Shown here: piece by piece, positions 57,960-62,797 of the stretch
How the letters are laid out: each line of letters opens with the position of its first letter
Position numbering within the stretch: position 1 is the first letter of the stretch
From: Oceanispirochaeta sp.
GTDB taxonomy: Bacteria > Spirochaetota > Spirochaetia > DSM-2461
DNA: 64,000 nt
Assembly: GCA_963663385.2 (NCBI GenBank)
Contig: CAXXXD010000001.1
Location: 448,001 to 512,000 of the forward strand
Direction: 5' to 3'
The notes under the pieces: model-generated
Databases searched by the model: none
What the model was told of the DNA's origin: nothing
What the model saw: the letters and a program-made list of their open reading frames with translations, nothing else
Translations under genes and position numbers: made by a program

Positions 57960-58114
57960 ACTTCCTCCTGTGTTTGGTATTCTGTTAAGGTAAACACCCC
58001 GGCAGGTAAAATGTTACATGTACCGGACTGTCTATCAGAGCATAACACTAATAGAAGGTTGAATCAATTCTGAAGATTCAGACAGATATGTATAGAAAAC
58101 AGAGGGAGCTAATA

Positions 58115-59080
58115 ATGAAAACACAGCAGATAAAACAAAATCCCGGTTATCTAATTGCCATGCTCAGTGCACTGATTCTGTCAACAACAGGAATCTTTAT
58201 CGCATATCTGTCAAATGAGTTCTCCCTGCCTCCCATTGTTCTCTCTTTCTGGCGGGAGCTCCTGGTTTTCCTGGTTCTGCTGATTTATCTGCTGATCAGA
58301 AATCCCCGTGCTGTTGATCCTAAAGGAAAAAACTTTTCCCTGCTTATCCCTTATGGTGTGATTCTGGCGGTTTTCAATGCTTTATGGACCTTCTCGGTTG
58401 TTCTGAACGGAGCCGCTCTTGGAACATTCCTTGTTTATACCAGTCCGATTTTCACAGCGCTTCTCAGCCGCCTGCTGTTCAGGGATAAAATGAGTGCTCT
58501 CCATCTGATCTGCATTCTCCTGAGCCTTACGGGCTGTCTGTTTATTTCCGGGATTCTATCCGAATCGGGCGGGTCTGTTTCTCTATTGGGTCTGGTTATC
58601 GGCCTACTGGCAGGATTGGCCTATAGCGGGTATACCATTATGGGGAAACAGGCAGGTAACGGGGCCGCGGCGGACGATATCTGGGGAACCCTGTGCTGGA
58701 TCTTCGGGATTGCGGCGGTGTGCATGTTTTTTATGAACCGGCTGACTGCTTTTCTACCGTCCTCGGCCTACCCGCTGGGAGGAAGACTTCTGTATCTGGG
58801 CTCCTCTTACAAGGGGTGGCTTATTCTGTTTCTTCTGGCAGCCGTTCCGACTCTTACAGGATTCGGCTTCTATAACTTAAGCCTTAAGTACCTGCCGCCG
58901 CTAACTGTCAGCCTGATTGCTTCTTCAGAGCCGGCTTTCACAGCAGTTCTGGCCTATTTCCTCCTTAAGGAGAGGATGGATTCGTTTTCAGCACTCGGAT
59001 GCTGTTTGATCCTTCTATCGGTTATTCTGATTCAAACCGGGATTCCCGTATTCCGCCGGGCCGATTCCTTGACAGGATAA
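58115..59080 (+). CDS. DMT/EamA-family transporter
   Basis: About 10 TM helices; YTSPIFTALLS, SEPAFTAVLAYFLLKE. Confidence 0.9.
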   Translation: MKTQQIKQNPGYLIAMLSALILSTTGIFIAYLSNEFSLPPIVLSFWRELLVFLVLLIYLLIRNPRAVDPKGKNFSLLIPYGVILAVFNALWTFSVVLNGAALGTFLVYTSPIFTALLSRLLFRDKMSALHLICILLSLTGCLFISGILSESGGSVSLLGLVIGLLAGLAYSGYTIMGKQAGNGAAADDIWGTLCWIFGIAAVCMFFMNRLTAFLPSSAYPLGGRLLYLGSSYKGWLILFLLAAVPTLTGFGFYNLSLKYLPPLTVSLIASSEPAFTAVLAYFLLKERMDSFSALGCCLILLSVILIQTGIPVFRRADSLTG

Positions 59081-59097
59081 TTGGCTGACGATACAAT
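59069..59097 (+). promoter_or_regulatory. sigma70 promoter of the pheST leader
   Basis: TTGACA (59069-59074)-17 nt-TACAAT (59092-59097). Confidence 0.8.
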
Positions 59098-59107
59098 ATC
59101 TCCCAAT

Positions 59108-59194
59108 ATGACAAAGCCCTTTTTCTTTTTTAATTTTTTTACTCACTTTTTCTTTTTCAGCTTTATAAGCGGGAAGAGGCCGGGGCTTTCATAA
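59108..59194 (+). CDS. Phe-rich leader peptide (PheM-like) MTKPFFFFNFFTHFFFFSFISGKRPGLS
   Basis: 28 codons, 11 of them Phe, between the promoter and the terminator directly upstream of pheS; too short for the ORF track. Confidence 0.8.
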   Translation: MTKPFFFFNFFTHFFFFSFISGKRPGLS

Positions 59195-59211
59195 AGAACG
59201 TTTGTTCAAAT

Positions 59212-59269
59212 GAGCCGCAGAGGGTTTCTTCCCATAATGAGGATGGAAACCTGCTGCGGCTCTTTTTTT
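59212..59269 (+). terminator. Attenuator terminator upstream of pheS
   Basis: GAGCCGCAG..GGTTTC..GAAACC..CTGCGGCTC-TTTTTTT. Confidence 0.85.
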
Positions 59270-59320
59270 GTCTGGTGTATTAAATGGAATCTAATATAAA
59301 TAAGGAATGAGAGGTCCAGG

Positions 59321-60364
59321 ATGGAACAGAATCTGGAAAATCTGAAAAATGAATTTGCCGAAGCCCTTGAAGCGGTGCAAGACCGTCCGGCGCTGGTAAA
59401 CCTGAAGGCGGATTTCCTGGGAAAGAAGGGAAAGTTGAATTCAATCCTTAAATCCCTGAAAGACGCTTCCCCCGAAGTAAAAAAATCTTTGGGAATGAAA
59501 TCCAATCAGCTGAAAGAGACAATACTGGCGGGAGTCGAAAAAAAAATGACCCAGCTGGAATTGTCTGAGATTAATGAGCGCCTGATGAAGAACTGGCAGG
59601 ATGTAACCCTCCGCGGATCAATTCGAGATAATGGTTTGAATGCAGCCGGCTATCATCCGGTAAGCATCATTCAGAGAGAGATAGAGGATATTTTTCTGTC
59701 CATGGGGTTTGAGATTCTGGACGGTCCCCATATTGAGGATGATTACCATAATTTTGAAGCCTTGAATATCCCCGAAACCCATCCGGCCCGTGATATGCAG
59801 GATACTTTCTGGTTTGCGGATATGCAGCACCTGCTGAGAACCCACACATCCTGTATTCAGGCCAGGGGAATGGAAACCCGGCAGCCACCCTTTAAATTCA
59901 TCGGTCCCGGTAAGGTCTTTCGCTGCGAAGCAACCGATGCATCCCATGAGGCGGCCTTTCATCAGCTGGAAGGGATGATGGTCGGAAAAGACATTTCCGT
60001 TGCCAACCTGATCTACTTTATGAAAACACTGTTGAGCGAGATTTTTCAGAAGGATGTCAATGTACGCCTTCGTCCGGGATTCTTTCCCTTTGTGGAACCG
60101 GGATTCGAACTGGATATCGAGTGCCTGATCTGCGGCGGCAAAGGCTGCTCTGTCTGTAAGCAGTCCGGTTGGGTGGAACTGCTTCCCTGTGGAATGGTTC
60201 ACCCCAATGTTCTGAAAGCCGGCGGAGTAGATCCGGAGGAGTATAATGGTTTCGCCTTTGGCCTCGGACTGGACCGCCTTGTTATGATGCGATACGGGAT
60301 TGATGATATCCGCCATCTGCACAGCGGAAATCTCTCATTCGTCTCACAATTTAAAGCGTACTGA
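59321..60364 (+). CDS. pheS: Phenylalanine--tRNA ligase alpha subunit
   Basis: NFEALNIPETHPARDMQDTF, LRTHTS, FHQLEG, FPFVEPG, GFAFGLGLDRL. Confidence 0.98.
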   Translation: MEQNLENLKNEFAEALEAVQDRPALVNLKADFLGKKGKLNSILKSLKDASPEVKKSLGMKSNQLKETILAGVEKKMTQLELSEINERLMKNWQDVTLRGSIRDNGLNAAGYHPVSIIQREIEDIFLSMGFEILDGPHIEDDYHNFEALNIPETHPARDMQDTFWFADMQHLLRTHTSCIQARGMETRQPPFKFIGPGKVFRCEATDASHEAAFHQLEGMMVGKDISVANLIYFMKTLLSEIFQKDVNVRLRPGFFPFVEPGFELDIECLICGGKGCSVCKQSGWVELLPCGMVHPNVLKAGGVDPEEYNGFAFGLGLDRLVMMRYGIDDIRHLHSGNLSFVSQFKAY

Positions 60365-60379
60365 TCGGGGGAATAAACA

Positions 60380-62797
60380 ATGTATATATCAATAGACTGG
60401 ATTAAAGATTATGTGGAACTGCCGGATCTTTCTCCGGAAGAGCTGGCAGTCCGCTTTACCATGGCCACCTGCGAGGTGGAGGAAGTTAAAACCACTGGAG
60501 CGCTGCTGGAAAAGGTCAGGATCGTACAAATTACTGAAATACAGAATCATCCCGATTCCGATCACCTTCACCTGGTGAAGTTTACAGATGGGAAAGGCAG
60601 CTGGGAAGTTGTCTGCGGAGCTCCCAATGTGGCTGTGGGAAAGAAAGTTCCCTATGCCCCACTGGGAACGACCTTTGCCGGAGGGTTTACCCTGGTTCCG
60701 AAAAAGATCCGCGGAATCATGTCCGAGGGCATGCTCTGCAGTGAGACCGAACTGGAAATCGGTAACGATGATTCGGGTCTGAAGATCTTCCCGGATGATG
60801 CACCTCTTGGGATTTCCGTTGCAGAATACCTGGGTGTCAAGGGCGATATCCTCTTTGATATTGATAATAAATCCATTACTCATCGCCCCGATCTCTGGGG
60901 GCACTATGGAATGGCCAGAGAGTTCGCTGCGGTTTTCCGGAATGAGCTTAAAAATCCTTTTAGTTTGGAGTGGGAGAAGAAAATTCAGGGATGGTTCAGC
61001 AGCGATAAACCTCCCGTGACGATTGAAGTGGATAAAGACTCTGCCAACCTGGGATTCAAAGGGCTTTCCATGGACAATATCACCATCAAGGACAGCCCCC
61101 AATGGATGCAGGAAAGGCTGAATGCCTGTGGGATGCGGCCCATTAATAATATAGTTGATATCTCCAACTATGTTATGCTGGAGCTGGGTATGCCCAACCA
61201 TATTTTTGACCGGGATACAAACCGCGGCGGCAGGATCGTTGTAAGAAGAGCCGGTGAGAACATGAAATTCACCACTCTTGATGAGGTTGAGCGGGATATA
61301 GTGCCTACTGACACTATGGTCTGCGATGCGGAAGGACCTGCCAGCATAGCCGGGATCATGGGTGGTCTGGATAGCGGTATTGCTGATACAACAAGCCGGA
61401 TTTTTCTGGAAGCGGCCAACTGGGTGGATGCGGAAGTCCGCCGTACTTCAACTCGTCTGGGGCTGAGGACCGATGCCCTGCAGCGCTATGAAAAATCTCT
61501 GGACAGCCAGATGCTGGATAATACCATCTACCGTCTGGTTGAGCTGATTAAGGAAAGCTGCCCGGAGGCTACTGTAGTAGGCGGTATTGTAGAAGATAAT
61601 ATGCCTGAATATACTCCGTTGGTTATTAAAATTTCTGCCAGCCGGGTTTGTCAGGTACTGGGTAAGGAAATTCCGGCAGAAGAGATTATCCGCATTCTGG
61701 AATCCCTTGATTTTGGGATTGCCCGGGAGGGAGACTCTCTGACAGTTACTGTTCCTTCCTATCGTTCTACCAAAGACATTGAGTGTGAGGCAGATATTAT
61801 TGAGGAGATCGGGCGGGTTATCGGTTACGATAATATTACCCCGGCTTCTCCCATGAATGCCATTACATCGGTTCGCCTTTCAGAGGCTCTCCAGATGTCC
61901 AGGAAAATCAAGGACTACCTTGTCTTAAACGGGAAATCCCTGGAAATCATGACCTACCCCATGGTAGGAGAAAAGCTTCTGGATCAGGCTTTCTGGCCGG
62001 AAAAAAATGAGAATCTGGTTCTGGTCAATGCTATGAGTCCGGAACATGACCGGATGCGTCCATCCATGATCCCCAGTCTTTTGAATACGGCGTCTCTTAA
62101 CCAGAAAACATGGAGCTCCTTCCGTATGTTTGAGATGGGACGCTCCTATATTCAGGATGATAAGGAATTCTCTAAAGAGCGGTATCAGCTTGGCGTGGTT
62201 TTTTTTGATAGGAAAAGGTCTCCCTTTATTGAGGTTGCTGATACCATGGAAGGTCTGATGAACAGCCTGAATCTTCCTTTCCGGATAACCACCGGTTACA
62301 ATAAGCAGAACCCCCTTTTACCGGAAGAGTGGCCCGGACGCCATCCCTCAGATTACCTGGATATTCAGGTAATGGGCGGAAGCTGCGGATTCATTACATC
62401 TGTTCATCCTCTGGTTTGCCGAAACTTCAAGATTAAGGGGCAGCTGGTTATGGCTGTTCTGGATTTGACAGACTTTCAGGATAAAAAGATGAAGGATAAG
62501 ACAAAGTATAAACCTCTGGCTAAATTCCCCTCATCAACCTTTGACTGTACCGTTGTTACAGACTCCCGGACTCCCGCTGAGGATGTGGTTAAGGCCATGG
62601 GAAGGATGAAGATGAAAGAGCTGGACTGGGTTCGAATCGTGGATATATTCCAGCTATCTGAGGAACAGAAGACAATAACAGTCCGAACCTCATTCAGCGA
62701 TGCGGAAAAGACCCTTTCGGGTGACTTTATCCGGGAAGCTGAAGACAAGGTTGTGGAAACCCTGAAAAAAGCAGGATTCCCCCTGAAAATGGGCTGA
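60380..62797 (+). CDS. pheT: Phenylalanine--tRNA ligase beta subunit (bacterial architecture)
   Basis: VVCGAPNV and SEGMLCS (tRNA-binding OB fold), THRPDL, INNIVDISNYVMLELG, DIIEEIGR, C-terminal FDX-ACB-like domain. Confidence 0.97.
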   Translation: MYISIDWIKDYVELPDLSPEELAVRFTMATCEVEEVKTTGALLEKVRIVQITEIQNHPDSDHLHLVKFTDGKGSWEVVCGAPNVAVGKKVPYAPLGTTFAGGFTLVPKKIRGIMSEGMLCSETELEIGNDDSGLKIFPDDAPLGISVAEYLGVKGDILFDIDNKSITHRPDLWGHYGMAREFAAVFRNELKNPFSLEWEKKIQGWFSSDKPPVTIEVDKDSANLGFKGLSMDNITIKDSPQWMQERLNACGMRPINNIVDISNYVMLELGMPNHIFDRDTNRGGRIVVRRAGENMKFTTLDEVERDIVPTDTMVCDAEGPASIAGIMGGLDSGIADTTSRIFLEAANWVDAEVRRTSTRLGLRTDALQRYEKSLDSQMLDNTIYRLVELIKESCPEATVVGGIVEDNMPEYTPLVIKISASRVCQVLGKEIPAEEIIRILESLDFGIAREGDSLTVTVPSYRSTKDIECEADIIEEIGRVIGYDNITPASPMNAITSVRLSEALQMSRKIKDYLVLNGKSLEIMTYPMVGEKLLDQAFWPEKNENLVLVNAMSPEHDRMRPSMIPSLLNTASLNQKTWSSFRMFEMGRSYIQDDKEFSKERYQLGVVFFDRKRSPFIEVADTMEGLMNSLNLPFRITTGYNKQNPLLPEEWPGRHPSDYLDIQVMGGSCGFITSVHPLVCRNFKIKGQLVMAVLDLTDFQDKKMKDKTKYKPLAKFPSSTFDCTVVTDSRTPAEDVVKAMGRMKMKELDWVRIVDIFQLSEEQKTITVRTSFSDAEKTLSGDFIREAEDKVVETLKKAGFPLKMG

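Follow-up and report, generated by a model that had tools for sequence, protein, structure and literature searches.

The pheST operon of Oceanispirochaeta sp., contained in a 64,000-nucleotide stretch of contig CAXXXD010000001.1 (hereafter the window), is preceded by a promoter, a short open reading frame (ORF) rich in phenylalanine (Phe) codons and an intrinsic terminator. We regard this element, with a probability of roughly 0.85, as a ribosome-mediated (leader-peptide) transcription attenuator that sets the expression of pheST by the supply of Phe-tRNA(Phe), and most likely it switches the operon on when charged tRNA-Phe is low. The sequence elements, their conservation, the coding constraint, the alternative pairings and their geometry were shown by sequence analysis and folding. 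Computational analysis found the main marks of a leader-peptide attenuator: a short ORF with clustered Phe codons, an intrinsic terminator before pheS, and an antiterminator pairing that excludes the terminator.

The promoter is composed of a -35 element (TTGACA, 59069-59074) and a -10 element (TACAAT, 59092-59097) separated by a spacer of 17 nucleotides (nt), letter for letter as the original prediction had it, and it overlaps the final codons of the upstream transporter ORF (58088-59080). Only one promoter-like site was found within positions 58000-60500, the one upstream of the leader, and shuffled sequences had 3.5 such sites on average. The leader ORF is translated as MTKPFFFFNFFTHFFFFSFISGKRPGLS. 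Eleven of its 28 codons are Phe (59120-59131, 59135-59140, 59147-59158 and 59162-59164), and the TAA stop is at 59192-59194. Direct reading found no purine-rich Shine-Dalgarno (SD) sequence before its ATG (59108); the Phe content and the lack of an SD had both been claimed beforehand, and reading and translation bore them out. The ATG lies 10 nt past the -10 element, a distance that suggests a 5' untranslated region (UTR) of about 2-4 nt. Eleven TTY codons within 20 stop-free codons occur at only three places in the whole 5.3-Mb genome, the other two being repeats within long open frames; the Phe density of the leader is therefore above chance. Between the leader and the SD of pheS stands the strong terminator that had been predicted, with a hairpin of -32.3 kcal/mol by folding and a T7 tract. 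A simple terminator scan of the window region did not list this hairpin because its stem is long and bulged, and it was detected by folding. The leader RNA as a whole (172 nt) has a minimum free energy (MFE) of -55.7 kcal/mol (z -4.6), and none of 200 shuffled sequences was equally stable.

The architecture was analyzed in 24 related Spirochaetia loci, which span at least nine genus- or family-level groups (loci, genera and families are denoted by L, g and f numbers). A Phe-rich ORF was the criterion by which these loci were selected, so the informative results are those on promoter distance and terminator. A promoter of the form TTGA..-16 to 18-TA...T was found at a similar distance from the ATG in all 24 loci, and the ATG is 8-12 nt past the -10 element in every one, which fits the near-leaderless geometry suspected from the window. 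The leader ORFs have 20-29 codons with 5-11 Phe. A run of T6-T10 follows 43-68 nt past the leader stop, and the hairpin before it has a folding energy of -9.6 to -38.8 kcal/mol, again without exception. The ATG frame is the richest in Phe at all 24 loci, and a stop is present in the +1 frame in 23 of them and in the +2 frame in 19. In the pyrimidine runs of these ORFs, C is located at codon positions 1, 2 and 3 in 7, 19 and 100 cases (of 126), and the bias is seen in every lineage. The preference of C for the third position, the maximum of Phe in the ATG frame and the stops in the other frames argue for a Phe-coding constraint on the tract. Judged from the sequences, the frame of the U-rich tract is under such a constraint, as the synonymy of TTT and TTC predicts this pattern and a non-coding U-rich signal does not. 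A loss of frame or of Phe coding, which would have spoken against an attenuator, was not seen in these 24 loci.

Two alternative pairings had been proposed for the RNA, one joining the start and the end of the ORF (AAAGCCC with GGGCTTT) and the other invading the terminator (GGGAAGA with TCTTCCC). Both were reproduced by folding. The former, here termed P1, is present in the MFE structure of the window as AAGCCCU/GGGGCUU together with UAUGA/UCAUA. The latter, the antiterminator, was obtained with RNA cut before the 3' arm of the terminator, and it extends to GGGAAGAGGCC (59171-59181) paired with GGUUUCUUCCC (59223-59233), lengthened by GGC with GCC; in all, 59171-59188 pairs with 59212-59233. 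When a 28-nt ribosome mask was laid over the Phe run, the cut RNA folded into the antiterminator in the window and in most of the 24 loci. The mean antiterminator pair probability under this mask was at least 0.85 in 17 of the 24 loci and lower in L010, L012, L013, L021, L086, L027 and L120; its drop to zero once the mask advances is built into the mask and has no value as evidence. In 17/24 loci, no more than 5 of 300 dinucleotide shuffles equalled the duplex between the post-Phe region and the 5' arm of the terminator.

A sequence-only alignment of the loci made with MAFFT (A2) was used to examine covariation. Of the terminator cells, 74.5% pair, with 25 double-change cells, and for the antiterminator 68.6% pair, with 39 double-change cells distributed over 10 of 15 pairs; none of 500 shuffles was as good in either case. 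Covariation of the stems had been named beforehand as a check, and it was found for those of the terminator and antiterminator, not for P1 when projected onto A2. In a swap test with 18 lineage representatives, 12 lineages had their own segment 2 (the 5' strand of the antiterminator) among the three best of the 18 for their terminator arm. The 1:2 pairing of an attenuator (anti-antiterminator) would be represented here by P1 and a further helix, P2, which are present both in the MFE structure and in the nascent RNA. P1 was matched by at most 9 of 300 shuffles in 16/24 loci when its duplexes were tested one by one, and its register varies between families. Besides these alternative helices, no conserved structured domain was found between the promoter and the terminator.

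The positions of the strands relative to the ORF are also conserved. The 5' strand of the antiterminator begins 9-22 nt past the last codon of the Phe run in 20/24 loci, and it ends -16 to +9 nt from the stop codon in 22/24. In the model, this strand begins immediately past the 3' boundary of a ribosome stalled on the Phe run, and its end lies under a ribosome that is finishing the ORF. Ribosome-free nascent RNA before segment 3 (the terminator 5' arm) adopts the P1/P2 fold (-17.8 to -27.5 kcal/mol). In the full-length RNA, the terminator state is the MFE structure, ahead of the antiterminator state by 0 to 24.6 kcal/mol, so the choice between the two must be kinetic, as it is in classical attenuators.

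We propose the following mechanism, in which the transcription start site (TSS), translation, stalling, timing and Phe response of the leader are what we infer from these data. Transcription would start a few bases before the ATG at 59108, as the promoter geometry indicates, and the message on which the leader ORF is translated would be leaderless or nearly so. With ample Phe-tRNA, the ribosome would pass the Phe codons and cover segment 2 (59171-59188) during synthesis of the terminator by the polymerase. With segment 2 covered, the hairpin (59212-59262) and its T7 tract would form, and transcription would end before pheS. When Phe-tRNA is scarce, the ribosome would stall among the Phe codons, with the greatest effect at codons 14-17. 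Such a stall would melt P2 and leave segment 2, about 15 nt downstream, free to capture the emerging 5' arm of the terminator; no terminator could then form, and pheST would be transcribed. If the ribosome is absent or has been released, P1 and P2 would already hold segment 2, and termination would be the default. P1 buries the start codon and would thereby restrict each transcript to one reading ribosome. The release of the antiterminator by a Phe-stalled ribosome was the core of the original prediction, and it is supported computationally by the conservation of the frame and of Phe, by the terminators of all 24 loci and by the alternative pairing. The features of the locus are listed in Table 1.

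Table 1. Features of the pheST leader region and operon in the window
Feature	Position	Strand	Basis or remark
Promoter, sigma-70-type, TTGACA-17-TACAAT	59069..59097	+	Direct reading; 11-of-12 consensus match
Leader ORF, 28 codons + TAA, 11 Phe codons	59108..59194	+	Reading, translation, comparison
P1 helix, 5' strand (UAUGA and AAGCCCU, start codon included)	59107..59120	+	Partner 59182-59193; MFE
P2 helix, 5' strand UCUUUUUC, Phe codons 15-17	59151..59158	+	Partner GGAAGAGG, 59172-59179
Segment 2, antiterminator 5' strand (GGGAAGAGGCC, then GGC); alternatively 3' strand of P2 and P1	59171..59188	+	
Small hairpin GAAC-N4-GUUC	59196..59207	+	Folding, genus alignment
Terminator hairpin	59212..59262	+	5' arm 59212-59234 common to antiterminator; 3' arm 59238-59262
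T7 tract of intrinsic terminator	59263..59269	+	Direct reading
pheS Shine-Dalgarno, GAGAGG	59309..59314	+	Direct reading
pheS	59321..60364	+	NCBIfam TIGR00468, 299.9 bits (cut-off 237.45)
pheT, phenylalanine-tRNA ligase beta subunit	60380..62797	+	NCBIfam TIGR00472, 625.3 bits (cut-off 402.65)

The small hairpin GAAC-N4-GUUC is located directly after the leader stop. Its stem is invariant and its loop variable across 10 loci of the genus, and the hairpin falls within the loop that the antiterminator closes.

Several observations weigh against the attenuator. A search for RNA sequencing runs that cover the window found none; the runs listed for the contig were six, from three studies. The 24 loci are kin, and counts over them overstate their independence. 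The other two frames of the U-rich tract still yield 2-7 Phe, and Phe richness alone is weak evidence because poly-U encodes Phe in any frame. The antiterminator is weak in 7/24 loci (L002, L010, L012, L013, L024, L027 and L030). On A2, sliding its partner by -1 column gives a covariation of 0.288 against 0.298 in the proper register, a near-equality that arises because the strands are runs of purines and pyrimidines. The lineages f2, g3, g6 and g1c performed poorly in the swap test. P1 fails the test by locus in 8/24 loci, and when its pairs are transferred from the window to A2, shuffles do as well. At equilibrium, the antiterminator also arises in cut RNA that carries no ribosome, with a probability of 0.73 in the window and at least 0.70 in 19/24 loci (0.00-0.22 in L010, L012, L013 and L120), so that default termination rests on a kinetic argument, the order of synthesis. 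Nine of the 28 relatives surveyed below carry the same type of pheS and lack the element (three in g4, four in g2, L018 and L022).

Some of these points would suit other explanations. The U-rich tract could be a non-coding signal in which the ORF is incidental, either a pause or uridine triphosphate-sensing tract of the pyrBI type or a site for Hfq or another protein before a conditional terminator. The Phe readings of all three frames and the leader ATG without an SD would fit such a signal, but it would account neither for the C bias to position 3 of the ATG frame in every lineage nor for a frame that stays open for 20-29 codons in all loci while the +1 frame is stopped in 23. The ATG is moreover at a fixed distance of 8-12 nt from the -10 element, and the genes downstream are pheST, not pyrimidine genes; we consider this explanation very unlikely. 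Alternatively, the hairpin might be the constitutive terminator of the upstream transporter gene, with the pheST promoter further down and the small ORF encoding a hydrophobic peptide that has a separate role. It is true that no other terminator lies between the end of the transporter ORF (59080) and 59212, and that the g1 peptides have a C-terminal PGL(S/T) motif in common. Apart from Phe, however, the peptide sequence is not conserved between families, and where C-terminal codons are conserved, they fall on the RNA strands of P1 and the antiterminator. The sole promoter-like site is upstream of the leader, the 5' arm of the terminator covaries with segment 2, and upstream genes differ among relatives while the unit stays with pheS (23/23 matches of the covariance model described below), all of which makes a constitutive terminator highly improbable.

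The unit could also be an attenuator that depends on translation but senses translation capacity in general, or the availability of ribosomes, and not Phe-tRNA. In the folding model, the antiterminator is favored whenever the leader ribosome slows before segment 2, as this explanation would have it, yet 5-11 Phe among 20-29 codons in every locus, with selection for TTY, would be unexplained. The other candidate leader in the genome, before an aminotransferase gene, is rich in alanine (Ala), which points to amino-acid-specific sensors, and we give a general sensor very little credence. The case for a tRNA- or ligand-binding RNA (T-box or riboswitch) in place of a ribosome-read leader stems from the T-box control of pheS in Firmicutes and from the presence of one T-box in this genome. 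This T-box is located elsewhere, upstream of a thrS-like gene. No relevant Rfam match was obtained in 58600-59800 at E <= 10, and the locus has no conserved structured domain other than its alternative helices, so we hold an RNA of this kind to be extremely improbable. A leader-peptide attenuator that responds to Phe-tRNA is thus the reading adopted here.

The distribution of the element was surveyed with the window PheS as the query. Bacterial-type pheS was found in 30 loci of 41 relatives, and other genomes of the class had only a distant, longer PheS with 31-37% identity across part of the query. Upstream DNA of 200 nt or more was available for 28 pheS loci, and in 19 of these pheS is preceded by a short Phe-rich ORF and then a terminator. 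These carriers comprise all 10 loci of the genus with upstream DNA, the genera g3, g5 and g6, and the families f2, f10 and f12. L009 was outside the initial filter, and a closer look confirmed that it carries the leader. A phylum-wide sample of 40 upstream regions contained the leader in two loci only, both of f26; in Leptospira-like loci, pheS stands immediately behind the preceding gene. A further 80 loci contributed the carriers L075, L086 and L120. No Phe leader was found in some 60 loci with labels such as Bacteriovoracaceae, where the identity of PheS is 65-73%. The best 20-codon windows of these loci mostly have at most 8 TTY codons; L089 (8) and L121 (9) were rejected on inspection, and L142 (7) was left uninspected.

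A covariance model was built from the A2 alignment and run on 151 genomes, an even sample of the class. It matched 23 of them, including the genome of the window, with exactly one match per genome. All 23 matches adjoin pheS on its upstream side and have a Phe-rich ORF, and 11 of them are new loci. The upstream genes vary among relatives, and promoter, leader and terminator remain attached to pheS. An Rfam search of 13 relatives' loci without the leader gave no match at E <= 0.01.

Other observations were made upstream of pheS in the loci surveyed. In L116 (537-623), a variant leader MTFRSVYSLFTGFIFSG... with few Phe codons is accompanied by a terminator and a 12-bp antiterminator, as judged by eye. 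L025 and L026 (g2) have MITRSVYSPFTFLPF in the same place, also with few Phe codons, and no obvious terminator was seen there. The variant leaders of these three loci have an N-terminal motif in common and may be a decayed or differently working form. L028 and L029 (g2) share a conserved block about 130 nt upstream of a pheS that starts with TTG; neither a leader ORF nor an Rfam match was found in them. In 18 of the 40 loci of the phylum-wide sample (L035-L047 and L063-L070; families f37, f48, f55, f66, f68 and f69), all without a Phe leader, a T-rich motif TTTTCCTTGAC(T/A)TTT is strongly conserved 60-250 nt upstream of pheS. This motif could be an extended -35 or UP-like promoter element, or an operator. 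Outside its own group, PheS is closest (65-73% identity) to proteins of records labelled Bacteriovoracaceae/Bdellovibrionota (L076-L150), and its identity to PheS of other classes of its own phylum is 53-63%. This pattern of similarity hints at horizontal transfer of pheS.

Attenuation of E. coli pheST by pheM is a classical mechanism. Both systems consist of a pheST operon, a Phe-rich leader peptide and an intrinsic terminator with an alternative pairing. By annotation and sequence, E. coli pheM has 14 codons with 5 Phe, whereas the leader described here is twice as long and has 11. E. coli pheM also has a longer 5' UTR and an AAGG-type SD, in contrast to the absence of an SD and the ATG 10 nt past the -10 element, and in the spirochaete leader, unlike in pheM, a helix joins the start codon to the end of the ORF. 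In Firmicutes, pheS is controlled by T-boxes. T-boxes likewise sense tRNA charging to pass a terminator before a synthetase gene, but do so by binding the tRNA itself, without a leader ORF.

Membership in the known RNA families was rejected. At the locus (58600-59800), the Rfam search at E <= 10 returned only chance-level matches, for example mir-35 on the hairpin. Phe_leader (RF01859, family cut-off 55 bits) gave no match there at E <= 10. Its best match in the whole genome reached 32.4 bits and is located elsewhere, at a terminator after an unrelated gene; as a positive control, the E. coli pheM region scored 75 bits. The T-box model (RF00230) had no match at the locus. The sole T-box match of the genome is at L157:1501-1762 (G000:C2:1264880-1265141; 97.7 bits, cut-off 93), and it adjoins an ORF of 584 amino acids that resembles a threonyl-tRNA synthetase, as named by eye from its N-terminus. 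A T-box before a thrS-like gene together with the Phe leader would make two different tRNA-charge sensors for synthetase genes in one genome.

A passage of PMC1262725 cites attenuation of pheST in gamma-proteobacteria. For Deinococcus deserti, a table of 14 leaderless putative leader peptides includes that of the Phe-tRNA ligase operon (PMC4007540, 2014). According to this table entry and its accompanying text, the leader has 19 codons and lies directly upstream of pheS, its TSS is at the A of the ATG, and it was proposed to act by transcription attenuation, a prediction combined with the mapped TSS. By its table entry, the D. deserti leader is alike in being a short, leaderless ORF directly before pheS, with the TSS mapped there and deduced here. 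It differs in phylum and in length (19 against 28 codons). The design of the spirochaete element is thus not unprecedented outside spirochaetes; pheST leaders are known elsewhere, and the element resembles the leaderless one listed for Deinococcus. Leaderless polycysteine short ORFs (sORFs) of mycobacteria are treated in a preprint (bioRxiv 10.1101/834739). As outlined there, these sORFs of Actinobacteria are similar in that their AUG is 5'-terminal, a single amino acid dominates the short ORF and the supply of that amino acid controls the operon downstream, and they differ in the amino acid, the operons and the phylum. Full-text literature searches, whose coverage leaves out most subscription journals, found no pheST leader of spirochaetes, in keeping with the original prediction.

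A second candidate leaderless attenuator in the genome came from a scan in which short ORFs close to a promoter and with a terminator behind them were sought. It is located at L159:105-290 (G000:C3:674105-674290), ahead of a gene at L159:333-1622. The promoter (TTGACC-17-TATCAT) is followed 6 nt later by an ATG, the ORF encodes MKLREQLSINSHLNAAAAAAASYGGIAG with seven consecutive Ala codons, and a GC-rich hairpin with T9 comes next. The gene encodes a pyridoxal phosphate-dependent aminotransferase, matching NF005334 with 631.7 bits and alanine aminotransferase as the next family. Of 15 loci examined, 11 have an Ala-run leader and a similar promoter before the aminotransferase orthologue, namely nine of the ten in the genus and those of f10 and f2. 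L167 retains the Ala run with a different end of the frame, and L170, L172 and L173 have no Ala leader. An Ala-rich leader before an aminotransferase gene supports the view that this lineage uses amino-acid-specific leaderless leaders. We know of no previous description of an alanine-sensing leader-peptide attenuator, but no search aimed at one was made. Genome scans for more leaderless leaders gave, beyond Phe and Ala, only chance-looking ORFs. A candidate leader reading MSPVWWNW was rejected as a tRNA-like sequence, judged by eye. It is a tentative idea, with the odds somewhat against it, that free-living Spirochaetia carry a leaderless attenuator set of their own, Phe before pheST and Ala before the aminotransferase gene. 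A single pioneer 70S ribosome would read each 5'-terminal AUG, and the helix between the start and the end of the Phe leader would block re-initiation and make it a one-shot sensor.

The pheST leader is an unannotated, well-supported regulatory element in a phylum for which we found no leader-peptide attenuator described. Rfam has no family for it, so annotation pipelines will overlook it. Regulation of pheST through a Phe-rich leader would have arisen or been kept outside gamma-proteobacteria in a leaderless form, as once predicted for Deinococcus. The 35 natural variants are a ready set for studying the coupling of ribosome and polymerase on leaderless messages in attenuation. The patchy distribution, with the element missing in 9 of 28 close relatives and in about 60 Bacteriovoracaceae-type loci, offers a small case study of the gain and loss of synthetase control.

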